Origin: Dehalococcoidia bacterium
Lineage (GTDB): Bacteria; Chloroflexota; Dehalococcoidia; JAUQQI01
Reading direction: 5' to 3'
Assembly: GCA_034432015.1 (NCBI GenBank)
Contig: DAOUCL010000043.1
Coordinates: 1 to 61,867, forward strand
Length of the DNA: 61,867 bases
Positions within the stretch are counted from its first letter, which is position 1. Each line of letters opens with the position of its first letter. This document shows positions 36,551 to 41,939 of the stretch, in pieces. The position numbers and the translations under genes are program-made. The notes below the pieces were generated by a model. That model did not search any database and was not told where the DNA came from. It saw only the letters and a program-made list of their open reading frames with translations.

Positions 36551-37108
36551 ATGGTCTTTCAGCCGGCCCAACTCGAATCGGCAGGGGTTTTACTCACCGC
36601 CCTGCTGGTCAGGCTGCTTATAAGCCTGGTCATCTTAGGGGTCGCCTACCTGGTTACCGGGCGGGTTTCGGGCCTGGTAAACCGGGTGCTGGCCCGGACC
36701 CGGGCTGAGCCCAACGCCCGCCTCCTGGTCGCCCGGATCATCCAGGGTGGGGTTTGGGCGGTGGCCGGGCTGGTCATCCTGGGGGTTTGGGGGACCGAGC
36801 TGGGGGCCCTGGCCGCCGGGGTCGGCCTCTTCAGCCTGGCCATCTCCATCGCCCTTCAGGACGTTCTGCGCAACTGGGTCGTGGGCCTTTACCTGCTCAT
36901 CGAGCGACCCTTTAAGATCGGCGACCGGGTGGCCCTTAAGGACAGCCTGGGGGTCATCGAGGACGTTCAGCTCCGGGTGACCCGGATCCGGGCCGACGAC
37001 GGCCGGGTGATCTACATCCCGAACCTGACGGTTTTTAACGAGATAATCGCCGTCCTTCCCCCCACCCCCAGGGCCGAAGACTCCGGCCCTTCCCAGACCC
37101 AGGCCTAG
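36551..37108 (+). CDS. small mechanosensitive ion channel (MscS family)
   Basis: Three TM helices followed by the ERPFKIGDRV beta-domain motif. Confidence 0.75.
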   Translation: MVFQPAQLESAGVLLTALLVRLLISLVILGVAYLVTGRVSGLVNRVLARTRAEPNARLLVARIIQGGVWAVAGLVILGVWGTELGALAAGVGLFSLAISIALQDVLRNWVVGLYLLIERPFKIGDRVALKDSLGVIEDVQLRVTRIRADDGRVIYIPNLTVFNEIIAVLPPTPRAEDSGPSQTQA

Positions 37109-38193
37109 GCCGTCCCAGGCCGCCTCCGGACGACCCGAACGGCGTACCGGGTCGCCTCGGCCAGAAACCGGCCCACCTCCCAGGCGGGCACCCCCCGCCG
37201 GGCCAGGGCGGCCCGAAGGGCCCCCGCCCGCTCGGGGGCGACGGCGATGAGCAGTCCGCCCGAGGTCTGGGCATCGGCCAGGATGAGCTTTTCGGCCTCG
37301 GTAAAGGCGTCGGCCCACTCGACCCGCACCCGGCCGGCCTTTTCGGTGCCGGAGAGGAAGGCCAGGTTTCGGCGGGTGCCCCCGGGCACCACCCCGGCCT
37401 CGGCCAGCTCCCGGACCGCCGGCATCAGGGGCACCGCCTCGAAGTAGACCTCCGCCCCCAGGGGGCTTTCCCGGACCATTTCGTAGAGGTGGCCCAGGAG
37501 GCCGTAGCCGGTGACGTCGGTGGCCGCCCGCACCCCCACCTCCACCATCGCCTCCGAGGCCTCCCGGTTGAGGGTGAGCATCCAGCGGACGGCCTCGGCC
37601 ACGGCTTCGGGCGGGGCCACCTCCCGCTTAATGGCCGTGGAGATGATGCCCGTTCCCAAAGGTTTGGTCAGAAAGAGGCGGTCGCCGGGACGGGCGGCCG
37701 TCTTGGCGATGATGCGCTCGGGGTGGACGGTTCCGGTTACTACCAGTCCGTACTTGGGCTCCGGGTCGTCGATGGAGTGGCCGCCGATAATCGGGGCCCC
37801 GGCCTCCCGGGCCTTCTCGGCCCCACCCCGCAGGATCTCCACCAGCACCTCCCGGGGCAGGGTATTAACGGGGAAGCCGATGATGTTCAGGGCGAAGCGG
37901 GGCCGGCCGCCCATCGCGTAGATGTCGCTTAAGGCGTTGGCGGCCGCAATGGCGCCGAAGAGAAAGGGGTCGTCCACGATGGGGGTAAAGAAATCGACCG
38001 TCTGGACCACGGCCAGGTCGTCCGAAAGACGGTAAACCCCGGCGTCGTCCGGCCGGTCGAGGCCGACCAGGACGTTGGGGTCGGTAAAAAAGGGCACCCG
38101 GCTCAGGACCTCGACGAGGTCCTCAGGACTTAGCTTGCAGGCTCAGCCGGCGCCGTGGGATAAGGTTGTAAGCCGAATCCTTTCCCGCTCCAA
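37105..38193 (-). CDS. selD: selenide, water dikinase (selenophosphate synthetase), selenocysteine-containing; UGA at 38145..38143 read as Sec
   Basis: The listed ORF (start 38097) lacks the catalytic N-terminus. The frame stays open upstream through one TGA to TTG 38193, giving (M)ERERIRLTTLSHGAG-U-ACKLSPEDLVEVLSR. This aligns to E. coli [25 protein letters not shown]. Confidence 0.85.
38102..38126 (-). promoter_or_regulatory. SECIS-like hairpin downstream of the selD UGA
   Basis: 8-bp stem AGGACCUC/GAGGUCCU with an apical GUC, plus 2 outer pairs. It starts about 17-20 nt 3' of the UGA. Confidence 0.5.
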
Positions 38194-38196
38194 GGG

Positions 38197-39129
38197 CTAC
38201 CACCAGATAATTTTCTCGGCCGTCTCGGCCAGCTCTTCGGTCGGGGTGGTCCAGACGCCGCTCGACAGATACTTCCAGCCGCCGTCGGCAAAAAGGACGA
38301 CGATGTTGGCCGCGGTGAGCCGCTCGGCGTATTTTAGGGCGGCGTAGAGGGCCGCCCCGGAGGAGATGCCGGCGAAGATCCCCTCCCGGTGAAGCAGTTC
38401 CCGGGTGAGCCGGAAGGAGTCGATGGCCCGGACTAAAATCTTGCCGTCCAGGAGGTTAAGGTCGAGAATCGGGGGAACAAAGCCCTCCTCCAGGCTTCGG
38501 AGGCCCTGAACCTGCTCCCCGGGGTGGGGTTCGGCGGCGACCACCCGGATGTTCGGGTTGTATTCTTTGAGGCGGCGACCGACCCCCATCAGGGTGCCGC
38601 CGGTACCCAGGCCGGCGACGAAGACGTCGACATCAGGCAGGTCTTCGAGGATCTCCGGCCCGGTGGTCTCGTAGTGGGCCAGGGGGTTGGCCAGATTCCC
38701 GTACTGGTAGGGCATAAAGTACTGGGGGTCCTCGGCCAGCTTGAGGGCCACCTCGATGGAACCGTTGGTGCCCCGGCGGCCGTCGGTAAGGATTATTTCG
38801 GCCCCGAAGGCCTGAAGCACCTGCCGGCGCTCGACGCTTACATTTTCGGGCATCACCACCTTTAGCCGGTAGCCCTTCACCCGGCAGACCATGGCCAGGG
38901 AGATGCCGGTGTTGCCGCTGGTGGGCTCAAGGACGGTCTTATCCGGGGTGAGCTTGCCCTCGGCCTCGGCCCGCTCGATCATATACTTGGCGATCCGGTC
39001 CTTAAGGCTGCCCGAGGGGTTGTGACCCTCGAGCTTGGCGAAGATACGGACCCCTTCCTTCGGCCGGAACCGCTTAAGCTCCACTAAAGGCGTCCGGCCG
39101 ATGGCCCCCAGAATGTCATCGCAGCGCAT
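38197..39129 (-). CDS. cysM: cysteine synthase, CysM-like (candidate CysO-thiocarboxylate-dependent)
   Basis: PLP-enzyme motifs (NPSGSLKDR, TSGNTG, GTGGT). ATG 39129 follows a GGAGG formed by the Gly-Gly codons of cysO. The alternative start TTG 39147 is listed on the track. Confidence 0.85.
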   Translation of the reverse strand: MRCDDILGAIGRTPLVELKRFRPKEGVRIFAKLEGHNPSGSLKDRIAKYMIERAEAEGKLTPDKTVLEPTSGNTGISLAMVCRVKGYRLKVVMPENVSVERRQVLQAFGAEIILTDGRRGTNGSIEVALKLAEDPQYFMPYQYGNLANPLAHYETTGPEILEDLPDVDVFVAGLGTGGTLMGVGRRLKEYNPNIRVVAAEPHPGEQVQGLRSLEEGFVPPILDLNLLDGKILVRAIDSFRLTRELLHREGIFAGISSGAALYAALKYAERLTAANIVVLFADGGWKYLSSGVWTTPTEELAETAEKIIWW

Positions 39130-39409
39130 GGTCTTGGCCTCCGGCAAGGGCCGGCAAAATGGAAAGGACGTCCCCGTCCCGGGTGGGGGTATTGAGCCGC
39201 TGGAGGAAACGGACGTCCTCGTCGTTTAGATAAATGTTGATATGCCGCCGGATCTCCCCGTTTTCGTCCAGCAGAAGCTTTTTAATGCCGGGGAACTGCT
39301 GTTCCAGCCGGTCCAGGATTTCCCCGACCGTTCGGCCTTCGACCTTGATCACCTTCTGGCCGCCCACGGCCGACTGAAGGATCGCCGGAACCCGAACTTC
39401 AACCGCCAT
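39116..39409 (-). CDS. cysO: CysO/MoaD/ThiS-family ubiquitin-fold sulfur-carrier protein (97 aa) with a 6-residue tail after Gly-Gly
   Basis: MAVEVRVPAILQSAVGGQK...NIYLNDEDVRF...DGDVLSILPALAGG-QDHALR resembles M. tuberculosis CysO (..NIYVNDEDVRF...DGDSVTILPAVAGG). Only the last 97 codons of track ORF 39116-39874 are coding. Confidence 0.8.
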   Translation of the reverse strand: MAVEVRVPAILQSAVGGQKVIKVEGRTVGEILDRLEQQFPGIKKLLLDENGEIRRHINIYLNDEDVRFLQRLNTPTRDGDVLSILPALAGGQDHALR

Positions 39410-40523: not shown

Positions 40524-40545
40524 CTTCACCATTACCCTCCGTCGG

Positions 40546-41490
40546 TTAAAATGGCATCGTCAGGTAGCGTTCACCGGTATCGGGCAGGATGGTCACCACC
40601 ACCTTGCCCGCCCCGAGCCGCTCTGCCACCTGCAAGGCCGCAAAGACGTTGGCCCCGGAAGATATCCCCACCAGAAGCCCCTCCTCCCGGGCGAGGCGGG
40701 CGGCGGTGGCGATGGCATCCTCATCCCGCACGTGGATGAGCTCGTCGATGACCTCCCGATTGAGCACCCCGGGCACGAAGCTGGCCCCCATCCCCTGAAT
40801 GGCGTGGGGCCGGAACTTGCCCCCGGCCAGCACCGGGGCTTTGGCGGGTTCCACCCCGACCACCAGCACCCCGGGAACCTCCGCCTTAAGCACCTCGCCC
40901 ACCCCCGTTATGGTGCCGCCGGTGCCGATGCCGATGACCACGGCGTTCACCTTCCCGTCGGTGGCCTCCAGGATCTCCCGGGCCGTCGTCTGCCGGTGGA
41001 TTTCGGGGTTGGCCGGGTTTTCGAACTGCTGGGGCATAAAGTAGCCGTATTTTTCCACCAGCTCCTGGGCGGCGTAAACCGCCCCGGTCATCCCCTCGAT
41101 GGCCGGGGTAAGGATTATCTCCGCCCCGAACCGCTGGAGGAGCCGGCGCCGCTCGATGCTCATATCCTCCGGCATCGTCAGGATTAGCCGGTAGCCCTTT
41201 ACGGCGGCCACCATCGCCAGGCCGATGCCGGTGTTGCCGCTGGTCGGCTCCACAATAGTGTCCCCGGGCTTTAAAATTCCGGCCCGCTCGGCCGCCTCCA
41301 CCATGGCCAGGGCGATGCGGTCCTTGACGCTTCCGGCCGGGTTAAGGGATTCCAGCTTGGCATAGATGGTGGCCGAGCCCGGCTTCGGCAGCCGGTTCAG
41401 CCGGACCATGGGGGTATTGCCGATAAGGTCTAGGACGCTTTCGGCGATTTTGGGCCGGGTTAAGACCTTGCGCGGAGCCCCCTCGGCCAT
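40546..41490 (-). CDS. cysK: cysteine synthase A (O-acetylserine sulfhydrylase)
   Basis: [38 protein letters not shown]. The start is trimmed to ATG 41490 behind AAGGA. Confidence 0.9.
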
Positions 41491-41501
41491 GGTTTGTCCT
41501 T

Positions 41502-41939
41502 TTAGATGTGATAAATCACCCGGGTTTCGGCCTGCTCTTCCCGCTCCAGCAGGTCCTGAAGGGTGACCGAATCGAGGATGCGCCGGGTCACCGCCCGGAC
41601 CTCCTGCCAGACCGACCGCTGGCCGCACCGCTCCGAGAGCTGGCAGGCGCCCATGTCATCCAGGCAGTCCAGGACGGCGATATTGCCCTCGAGGGCGGCG
41701 ACGACCTCCCCCATGGTGATCTGACTGGGGGGCCGCATAAGCATGTGGCCGCCCTGGGGCCCCCGGATGCTCCGGATGAGGCCGGCCTTCCGCAGCACCG
41801 TCAGCAGCTGGTCCAGGTAGGGTTCGGGGATGAACTGGCGGGCCGCGATCTCGCTGGTCTGCACGGGCCCCTCACCGTAATGGCGGGCCAGGTCCACCAT
41901 CGCCCGGATGCCATAATCGGCCTTCATGGAGATGCGCAT
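41502..41939 (-). CDS. Rrf2-family transcriptional regulator (IscR/CymR-like) with a three-Cys cluster-type motif
   Basis: [14 protein letters not shown]... wHTH, then [14 protein letters not shown] (C-x6-C-x5-C). Confidence 0.85.

Follow-up and report, generated by a model that had tools for sequence, protein, structure and literature searches.

The described system closest to the one considered here is the protein-thiocarboxylate route to cysteine of Mycobacterium tuberculosis, in which CysO, CysM, Mec and MoeZ take part (Rv1334-Rv1336 and Rv3206c; structures 3DWG and 3DKI). Neighbourhoods that join ThiS/MoaD proteins, E1-rhodanese proteins, JAB peptidases and cysteine synthases have been collected by Iyer, Burroughs and Aravind 2006 (PMC1779556, Table 1 rows 4b-4d). 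Their carriers include Chloroflexus and Rubrobacter, and fusions of a ubiquitin-like (Ubl) domain to ThiF usually co-occur there with a stand-alone ThiS. For selD, the gene of selenophosphate synthetase (selenide, water dikinase), the described neighbours are ybbB/selU, selA/selB, a NifS-like selenocysteine (Sec) lyase, YedE/YedF, a SirA-like protein, LysR_Se and an NADH-oxidoreductase fusion (PMC2432076, PMC5322559, PMC9312934). Here we analyse a six-gene block in the 61,867-nucleotide (nt) contig DAOUCL010000043.1 of a Dehalococcoidia bacterium, the whole of which is referred to below as the window. All of the block except selD is an operon of a known type, and selD as its last cistron is an addition in this lineage. 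Comparable links of selD arose independently in two other bacterial groups and hint at an undescribed connection between sulfur and selenium.

All six genes lie on the minus strand. The block begins with the gene of an Rrf2-family regulator (41502..41939, 145 amino acids (aa)), followed by cysK for O-acetylserine sulfhydrylase A (40546..41490, 314 aa), a gene for a Ubl domain fused to an E1-type adenylyltransferase (Ubl::E1; 39429..40532, 367 aa), cysO for a stand-alone ThiS/MoaD-type sulfur-carrier protein (39116..39409, 97 aa), cysM of the M. tuberculosis or O-phosphoserine sulfhydrylase type (38197..39129, 310 aa) and selD (37105..38193, 362 aa including Sec17). The first four genes are separated by gaps of 11, 13 and 19 nt, cysO and cysM overlap by 14 nt, and the TTG start of selD, which a GGTGG motif precedes by 6 nt, lies 3 nt past the cysM stop. 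A first-pass annotation, made by a model from the letters of the window, had described six co-directional and tightly spaced genes, a cysO tail that overlaps the cysM start and a selD that begins 3 nt past the cysM stop. This layout was borne out, and comparisons with Pfam, NCBIfam and PDB agree with all of its gene identifications. NCBI gene calls in 96%-identical relatives have the same starts, including that of selD, and give a CysK of 314 aa as in the window; in two relatives (loci L164 and L165) the selD product is called at 360 aa, in the same position. The 3' end of selD is abutted by a convergent MscS-type gene. Such a block would form a single, presumably co-transcribed operon for cysteine synthesis.

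The core of the block can be placed with some precision. CysK matches TIGR01139 with 443 bits (cutoff 351) and also PF00291, and CysM matches TIGR01136 with 363 bits (cutoff 344). The best PDB matches of CysM are M. tuberculosis CysM, 3DWG and 3DKI (E=3e-96, 325 bits), the next match having 269 bits. Its SLKDR motif aligns with the pyridoxal phosphate lysine, Lys51, and the counterpart of M. tuberculosis Arg220 in the alignment is the arginine of GLRSLEEGF. Arg220 is tied to the use of O-phosphoserine, which is probably the substrate here too. CysO matches PF02597 (E=1e-15), and its best solved structures are 4N6E_B (E=6e-22) and M. tuberculosis CysO, 3DWG_C (E=2e-20). With M. tuberculosis CysM/CysO (3DWG) among the best solved structures and the Arg220 equivalent present, the earlier assignment to the CysO/CysM protein-thiocarboxylate route holds, and the core belongs to a known kind, the CysO/CysM route combined with CysK under an Rrf2 regulator. 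The likeness to the M. tuberculosis pathway thus extends to a ThiS/MoaD-type carrier with Gly-Gly, to a CysM that is nearest to its CysM and to an E1 of the MoeB/MoeZ group. The window differs in that its E1 has no rhodanese and has a second Ubl fused N-terminally, that its CysO has a 6-residue tail past Gly-Gly, that JAB (Mec) is found neither in the operon nor in the window, and that the operon includes Rrf2, cysK and, as last cistron, selD.

In the mechanism that we propose, CysK would make cysteine from O-acetylserine and sulfide, and a parallel protein-thiocarboxylate route of the M. tuberculosis CysO/CysM kind would run beside it. The E1 would adenylate the C-terminal glycine of a ThiS/MoaD-type carrier, and a persulfide donor encoded elsewhere would turn the carrier adenylate into a thiocarboxylate. 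CysM would then condense the thiocarboxylate with (probably) O-phosphoserine, and a JAB/Mec peptidase, encoded elsewhere in this lineage and presumably acting in trans, would release cysteine.

The fusion protein has PF02597 at aa 12-94 and PF00899 at aa 108-342, and no rhodanese domain was detected in it with Pfam. It passes the MoeB subfamily model NF004281 (305 versus a cutoff of 266) and falls below the MoeZ model (377 versus 647). The ThiS/MoaD-like domain takes up aa 1-94 and terminates in Gly93-Gly94; after a short linker there follows the MoeB/ThiF adenylyltransferase, with a GxGxxG loop, two CxxC pairs and the PNCAEAG cysteine. The junction could be located in 118 fused homologues, and every one of them keeps the Gly-Gly, within the motif P-A-[MIL]-x-G-G; the linker after it has 2 to about 20 residues. 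The stand-alone CysO is 45% identical to the fused Ubl and ends in LAGG-QDHALR, that is, six residues beyond Gly-Gly. Tails in the lineage of the window read QDHALR, RGHAQR and QCDAGF, and across the family there are 0-6 poorly conserved residues. Many relatives have no stand-alone Ubl, the fused Ubl being found beside CysM and JAB (the L091 type and L115). Because the Gly-Gly is present at all 118 junctions, and because operons exist in which the only Ubl beside CysM and JAB is the fused one, the fused Ubl is probably a carrier precursor that is cleaved by JAB. Both carriers of the window would need a JAB-type peptidase, since one is part of the E1 fusion and six residues follow the Gly-Gly of the other. 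The simplest reading is that JAB cuts the carrier out of the fusion and trims the tails, and at a later stage liberates cysteine.

Neither this peptidase nor a rhodanese was found in the window. A tblastn search of its 61,867 nt with three JAB and two rhodanese queries returned noise only (E of at least 0.2), custom hidden Markov models (HMMs) of JAB (from 26 sequences) and of rhodanese (from 66) had no match in the six-frame translation, and Pfam on 20 further open reading frames of the window gave no JAB, rhodanese, SelA, SelB, YedE/F or NifS. By tblastn, HMMs and Pfam a JAB or rhodanese hidden in the window is ruled out, and the earlier remark that no JAB/MPN peptidase is visible is confirmed over all 61.9 kb. 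In the close relatives L164-L168 JAB was not found within 10 kb, and rhodanese is likewise absent from the 10-kb flanks. The JAB and rhodanese functions would have to be supplied from elsewhere in the genome.

How far selD belongs to this operon can be judged from its relatives. Loci were retrieved by pattern-based scans, with at most 80 loci listed per scan; many of the metagenomic contigs are short, and the comparison genomes are mostly metagenome-assembled genomes (MAGs). Homologues of the E1 fusion number in the thousands, are annotated as MoeB or SAMP1 and come from Chloroflexota, Methylomirabilota and other phyla. Our module-centred sample consists of 80 metagenomic loci with an E1 52-68% identical to that of the window, 23 of which extend 3 kb or more to either side of the E1. 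Among the 80 loci listed JAB is present in 65 and a rhodanese fused to the E1 in 69, the typical order being Rrf2, rhodanese, PALP, JAB and Ubl::E1::rhodanese. In the rhodanese-less subgroup nearest to the window the operon reads Rrf2-cysK-Ubl::E1-cysO-cysM-Prok-JAB (L084, L171/L172). Its first five genes agree with those of the window in order and orientation (E1 67-68%, CysM 67% and CysK 75% identical), and it differs in the sixth gene, which is Prok-JAB where the window has selD. Other rhodanese-less relatives have no JAB in the operon (L085, L086, L170), lack cysO (L115) or have just Rrf2-cysK-Ubl::E1 (L169).

The cysM-selD junction was found only among close relatives, with an E1 at least 87% identical, and the full six-gene order with selD only where the E1 is 89-100% identical (L001-L003 and L164-L168, which come from MAGs and metagenomes of Chloroflexota). 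In the next relatives, at about 70% identity, the junction is absent. Judged by gene order, selD occupies the slot in which relatives carry JAB, and the junction is evidently young. Within these near relatives the block is kept though the flank upstream of Rrf2 differs, as in L167/L168 compared with L164 and the window. Conservation of the junction across the relatives of the module is ruled out by the absence of selD from all 80 metagenomic and all four long-contig loci, and the first-pass description of the module as "hard-wired" to selD is therefore too strong.

Several other features had been listed there as differences from the M. tuberculosis pathway, and these are real but not special. 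The E1 does lack a rhodanese, but rhodanese-less E1s are common in the relatives. Two Ubl copies are present, one of them fused to the E1, but Ubl::E1 fusions with a Gly-Gly junction run into the thousands. Both Ubl domains do have residues past Gly-Gly, and processing is therefore needed, but CysO tails are common in the family. An operon without JAB is no peculiarity either, as JAB is part of it in some relatives only, and Rrf2 and cysK, rightly placed at the head, also head the operon in relatives.

One reading of this restricted junction is that there is no functional link at all. A neutral rearrangement may have put selD beside the operon, possibly at the same time as JAB was lost or relocated, and phylogenetic inertia may have kept it there. 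The limitation of the module-centred junction to close relatives and its absence from those about 70% identical favour such a history, but the 3-nt gap and the upstream GGTGG look like an integrated cistron.

In a selD-centred sample of 80 species-representative loci (SelD 49-63% identical; 60 loci with at least 3 kb on both sides), module genes were found near selD in four of the loci listed: L076 and L081 from Actinomycetota, L036 from Dehalococcoidia and L039 from Methylomirabilota. In L039 an Rrf2-cysK-Ubl::E1 cluster lies 6 kb from selD on the other strand. L076 and L081 have selD, Prok-JAB, a rhodanese-less E1, a CysO whose C-terminus is Gly-Gly, and CysM, which in L081 is preceded by an insertion. 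Four more Actinomycetota loci (L173-L176; SelD 66-72% identical to that of L076) have selD-JAB-ThiF-ThiS-(insertions)-PALP, followed by murI, metallo-beta-lactamase, RNase PH and Ham1 genes, so that the order selD-JAB-E1-cysO-cysM is present in 6/6 loci of this clade. In marine Dehalococcoidia selD is followed directly by a stand-alone Prok-JAB of the Mec-like subgroup in all three loci examined (L036:10001-11756, L177:5001-6413 and L178:5001-6453; SelD of the two relatives of L036 65-73% identical), and the pair is kept at SelD identities of 65-100% and despite a hydrolase insertion upstream of selD in L178. Its context is a conserved ftsH-AIRC-selD-JAB-leuA; within 5 kb of it there is neither an E1 nor a Ubl nor a CysM.

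Neighbour-joining trees of E1, CysM and JAB, which are distance-based, rough and without support values, place the lineage of the window inside a Chloroflexota-type rhodanese-less group and the Actinomycetota clade apart from it, not as its sister. In these trees every selD-adjacent JAB falls within the JAB subgroup of the cysM-JAB operons. The links to selD are restricted to the branch with rhodanese-less E1 and the matching JAB, and selD was found in none of the 69 rhodanese-fused loci. Because the trees separate the clades and the gene orders differ, we take the juxtapositions to be independent. A single origin, or horizontal transfer of a module already linked to selD, is ruled out by the placement of selD at opposite ends and by the non-sister clades, within the limits of such rough trees. 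The first-pass annotation had asked whether the synteny is unique to this genome; it is found in close relatives, and selD is linked to the pathway in Actinomycetota and Dehalococcoidia as well.

A rough estimate, which is not a computed statistic, puts the probability that selD comes to lie beside any of the five genes by chance at about 0.3% for each placement in a genome of 3000 genes. It is difficult to attribute three independent cases to chance alone, and some link is therefore considered likely; whether functional or regulatory, a link between selD and the pathway is plausible from the gene arrangements. The proposal of no functional link would treat the Actinomycetota and Dehalococcoidia arrangements as single old events in conserved housekeeping neighbourhoods. 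In its favour, the Actinomycetota block and the Dehalococcoidia ftsH-AIRC-selD-JAB-leuA order both lie in slowly rearranging regions, and the former is presumably syntenic with the mec-cysO-cysM...murI-rph region of M. tuberculosis. Against it, three independent juxtapositions with one five-gene pathway are improbable, far fewer than one being expected among the 80 sampled loci by a rough count, and selD stays with JAB while the other flank changes, both in L173-L176, where the gene on the far side of selD is PfkB, Amidohydro_2 or DoxD-Rieske, and around the insertion in L178. We consider the absence of any functional link rather unlikely.

SelD itself is an ordinary member of its family. It passes TIGR00476 with 403 bits (cutoff 125) and NF002098 with 394 (cutoff 299), and its N-terminal loop, HGAG-U-ACK, has Sec17 at the catalytic Sec/Cys position and Lys20. 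The Sec codon is an in-frame UGA (38143..38145, minus strand) in a conserved codon column, with TGA in 58 of 86 selD loci and Cys in the remaining 28. The first-pass annotation was right that this selD contains Sec, but the Sec form is the majority and no special difference. A SECIS-like hairpin (selenocysteine insertion sequence), CCUGAGGACCUC-GUC-GAGGUCCUGAG, is predicted by folding at 38101..38126 on the minus strand, 19-44 nt past the UGA, and a hairpin with complementary stems of different sequence is found at this offset in other Sec-type selD genes. Taken alone, the 69-nt segment has a z-score of only -1.2, and no Rfam family matches at the gathering threshold. That the UGA is a true stop and selD a pseudogene is ruled out by the conserved N-terminal motif and by TGA at the same codon in 58/86 loci, and an orphan or sulfur-specific SelD-like protein is ruled out by the equivalog scores and the Sec residue. 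A tRNA-Pro(GGG) of 96 nt called by ARAGORN in the 3' end of selD (37118-37213, minus strand) is probably a false positive, because it lies inside conserved coding sequence, is over-long and has no Rfam tRNA there. Judged by its sequence, selD is a canonical selenophosphate synthetase gene that would serve selenocysteine decoding. SelD's own Sec indicates that the organism decodes selenocysteine and therefore needs selD.

This identity bears on the proposal that the rhodanese-less E1 receives its chalcogen donor from SelD, for example as thiophosphate made from sulfide, which would thiolate the Ubl-adenylate. A SelD-like family has been proposed computationally to make a thiophosphate compound in Crenarchaeota (PMC4210487), and it is solely with rhodanese-less E1s that selD is linked. 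Against this, the SelD of the window is canonical by equivalog models and is a selenoprotein, its presence being already explained by selenocysteine decoding, and many rhodanese-less operons manage without selD. E. coli SelD, moreover, is reported not to use sulfide. A role of SelD as the E1 donor therefore seems very improbable.

The explanation that we prefer, and to which we give an even chance of being right, is a sulfur-only CysO/CysM route with which selD is co-expressed, the selenide/sulfide pool being the point of coupling. Both SelD and the cysteine synthases would draw on one reduced chalcogen pool, and a co-expressed SelD would route selenide into its specific pathway or recover it from the pool, such a partition of selenide being a rationale of our own. 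CysK makes selenocysteine from selenide (bioRxiv 10.1101/2020.02.07.939272), and selenium is mobilised in vivo from free selenocysteine, at least as Lacourciere 2002 is cited in that preprint. The E. coli case resembles the window in the biochemical tie of cysteine synthases, through non-specific selenocysteine formation by CysK and the feeding of SelD, to the substrate pool of SelD; it differs in that its genes are not linked to one another and a Ubl carrier plays no part. NifS-like lyases, rhodaneses and thiol carriers have so far been named as candidates for handing selenide to SelD while it is kept out of the sulfur pathway. The first-pass annotation had suggested that a Ubl selenocarboxylate might be formed, with co-regulation of selD and cysteine supply as its fallback. 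The fallback fits best, and the selenocarboxylate has no direct support.

Several observations weigh against co-expression at a shared pool. No selD was found near the module in any of the 80 metagenomic loci listed (23 with at least 3 kb on each side) or in the four further relatives on long contigs, and 76 of the 80 listed selD loci have no module gene in the fetched flanks. No JAB or sulfur donor was located in the 61.9-kb window that was searched. Nor does co-expression explain why JAB is the recurrent neighbour of selD in the other two lineages, so that the Ubl system might also have a direct part in carrying selenium.

In such a role the E1/Ubl/JAB system would carry selenium in addition to sulfur. 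The Ubl-adenylate might take selenide, or the selenium of selenophosphate, to give a C-terminal selenocarboxylate, or the thiocarboxylate might bind selenium as an acyl perselenide. The selenium might then pass to the Sec/Cys17 loop of SelD or, through CysM and JAB, into free selenocysteine. That the compound from which SelD takes its selenium in the cell is a matter of debate counts in favour of the proposal. It is also favoured by the joining of selD to the pathway at least three times in different orders (cysM-selD, selD-JAB-E1-cysO-cysM and selD-JAB), and by the restriction of all cases to the rhodanese-less E1 and matching JAB subgroup, with none among the 69 rhodanese-fused loci. On the other hand, we found no report of a protein selenocarboxylate in the literature searched, most of it open-access, and the rhodanese-less operons of L084, L085/86, L115 and L169-L172 are without selD. 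The Dehalococcoidia loci have JAB alone, without E1, Ubl or CysM within 5 kb, and adjacency cannot tell shared chemistry from shared regulation. Direct trafficking of selenium by this system is in our view unlikely. The more specific form of the idea, in which the rhodanese-less E1/Ubl/JAB system is partly a selenium-trafficking device and the selenocarboxylate or acyl perselenide of the carrier is the physiological donor of SelD, or else the acceptor of selenium from selenophosphate, is distinctly doubtful. If true, it would explain the independent recruitment of selD in two classes of Chloroflexota and in Actinomycetota, and it would be a new selenium-handling route with a bearing on how SelD gets its selenium.

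The combination seems not to have been described. Literature searches that paired selD with CysO, thiocarboxylate, cysteine synthase or ThiF, or that looked for selenocarboxylate, brought up no account of the link; what was searched was mostly open-access, so that this is no proof of novelty. The first-pass annotation knew of no description of this gene order, and the surveys of selD neighbourhoods and these searches are in line with that. The described selD neighbourhoods share with the window the recurring theme of selD beside genes that handle reduced sulfur or selenium; they differ in that cysteine synthase, ThiF/MoeB, ThiS/CysO and JAB are not named as partners, and MoeB is given only as a selenoprotein family entry in PMC9312934. 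The neighbourhoods of PMC1779556 have the same component set and kind of fusion as the window; they differ in that the E1 is described as fused to rhodanese, JAB is included and selD is unmentioned. A link of selD to a ubiquitin-like thiocarboxylate pathway that arose independently in three lineages is a concrete and cheaply testable lead, with a new selenium carrier or a control of selenium use by sulfur status as its possible yield. If the link is merely regulatory or accidental, the locus would be an ordinary variant, and its main value would be a clear case of an E1-fusion carrier precursor.

The regulator at the head of the operon matches PF02082 (E=6e-41) and TIGR00738 (138 bits versus a cutoff of 73). 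It remains below the equivalog cutoffs for CymR (123 versus 195) and IscR (109 versus 208), so that it passes only at the level of the Rrf2 superfamily. Three cysteines, C-x6-C-x5-C, lie at the place of the cluster ligands of Fe-S-binding Rrf2 proteins and are candidate ligands. An Rrf2 gene heads the operon in the relatives L084, L086, L115, L169-L172 and L091 as well, and it is probably by its own Fe-S-type Rrf2 regulator that the operon is controlled. The AT-rich region upstream of the gene (41940..42010, minus strand), a putative promoter/operator on inspection, has a GGAGG-like ribosome-binding site and a short inverted repeat, GTTTA-N4-TAAAC; a consensus promoter scan did not flag this region. 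The minus-strand scan of cysM-selD found no convincing internal promoter, a consensus-based result that has little weight for Chloroflexota, and terminator-like matches were at the level of the shuffled background.

Some further loci combine similar components in other ways. In Marinimicrobia/Neomarinimicrobiota (L016, L018 and L022) an Rrf2 gene lies about 100 nt downstream of a Sec-type selD. In L022 (10100-15875) a suf operon follows the Rrf2 gene, with FeS_assembly_P, Fe-S_biosyn/SufA-like, SufB, SufC and SufD genes, so that this is another selD attached to an Rrf2-headed sulfur-trafficking operon. The L091-type loci (L091:7185-11431), which are the commonest relatives of the module, have a gene for a two-domain rhodanese between Rrf2 and PALP, and their Ubl::E1::rhodanese protein has 475 aa, with no stand-alone Ubl. 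About 5 kb upstream of the JAB operon L171/L172 have a second carrier cluster (1080-3957) of PALP (415 aa), NIL domain, ThiS and ThiF genes, possibly for a separate thiocarboxylate-dependent pathway of the homocysteine/methionine type.

Upstream of Rrf2 the window has a gene for a DHDPS (DapA-like)::RNase H/RVT_3 fusion (41872-43356, minus strand). Its frame is 494 aa long, against 440 aa in L164/L165, and overlaps the start of Rrf2 by 68 nt; the overlong frame suggests a shifted stop or a sequence difference at the 3' end. In the 89%-identical L167/L168 (3960-8338) a molybdopterin oxidoreductase and an NrfD/4Fe-4S subunit are encoded upstream of Rrf2, where the window has the DHDPS-RNase H, cNMP-binding and NUDIX genes, and the downstream flank is unchanged. 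On that side, 1.7 kb beyond selD (33920-35434, minus strand), a gene of the sulfite oxidase family (Oxidored_molyb/Mo-co_dimer in relatives) encodes a protein with an N-terminal membrane region; the gene is another sulfur-related neighbour, and its position is kept in L164 and L167/L168. At the far end of the window a TPP riboswitch (RF00059, 63.8 bits; 1189-1303) lies upstream of two tandem TENA/THI-4 genes (1329-2724), the second of which is far more divergent than the first.

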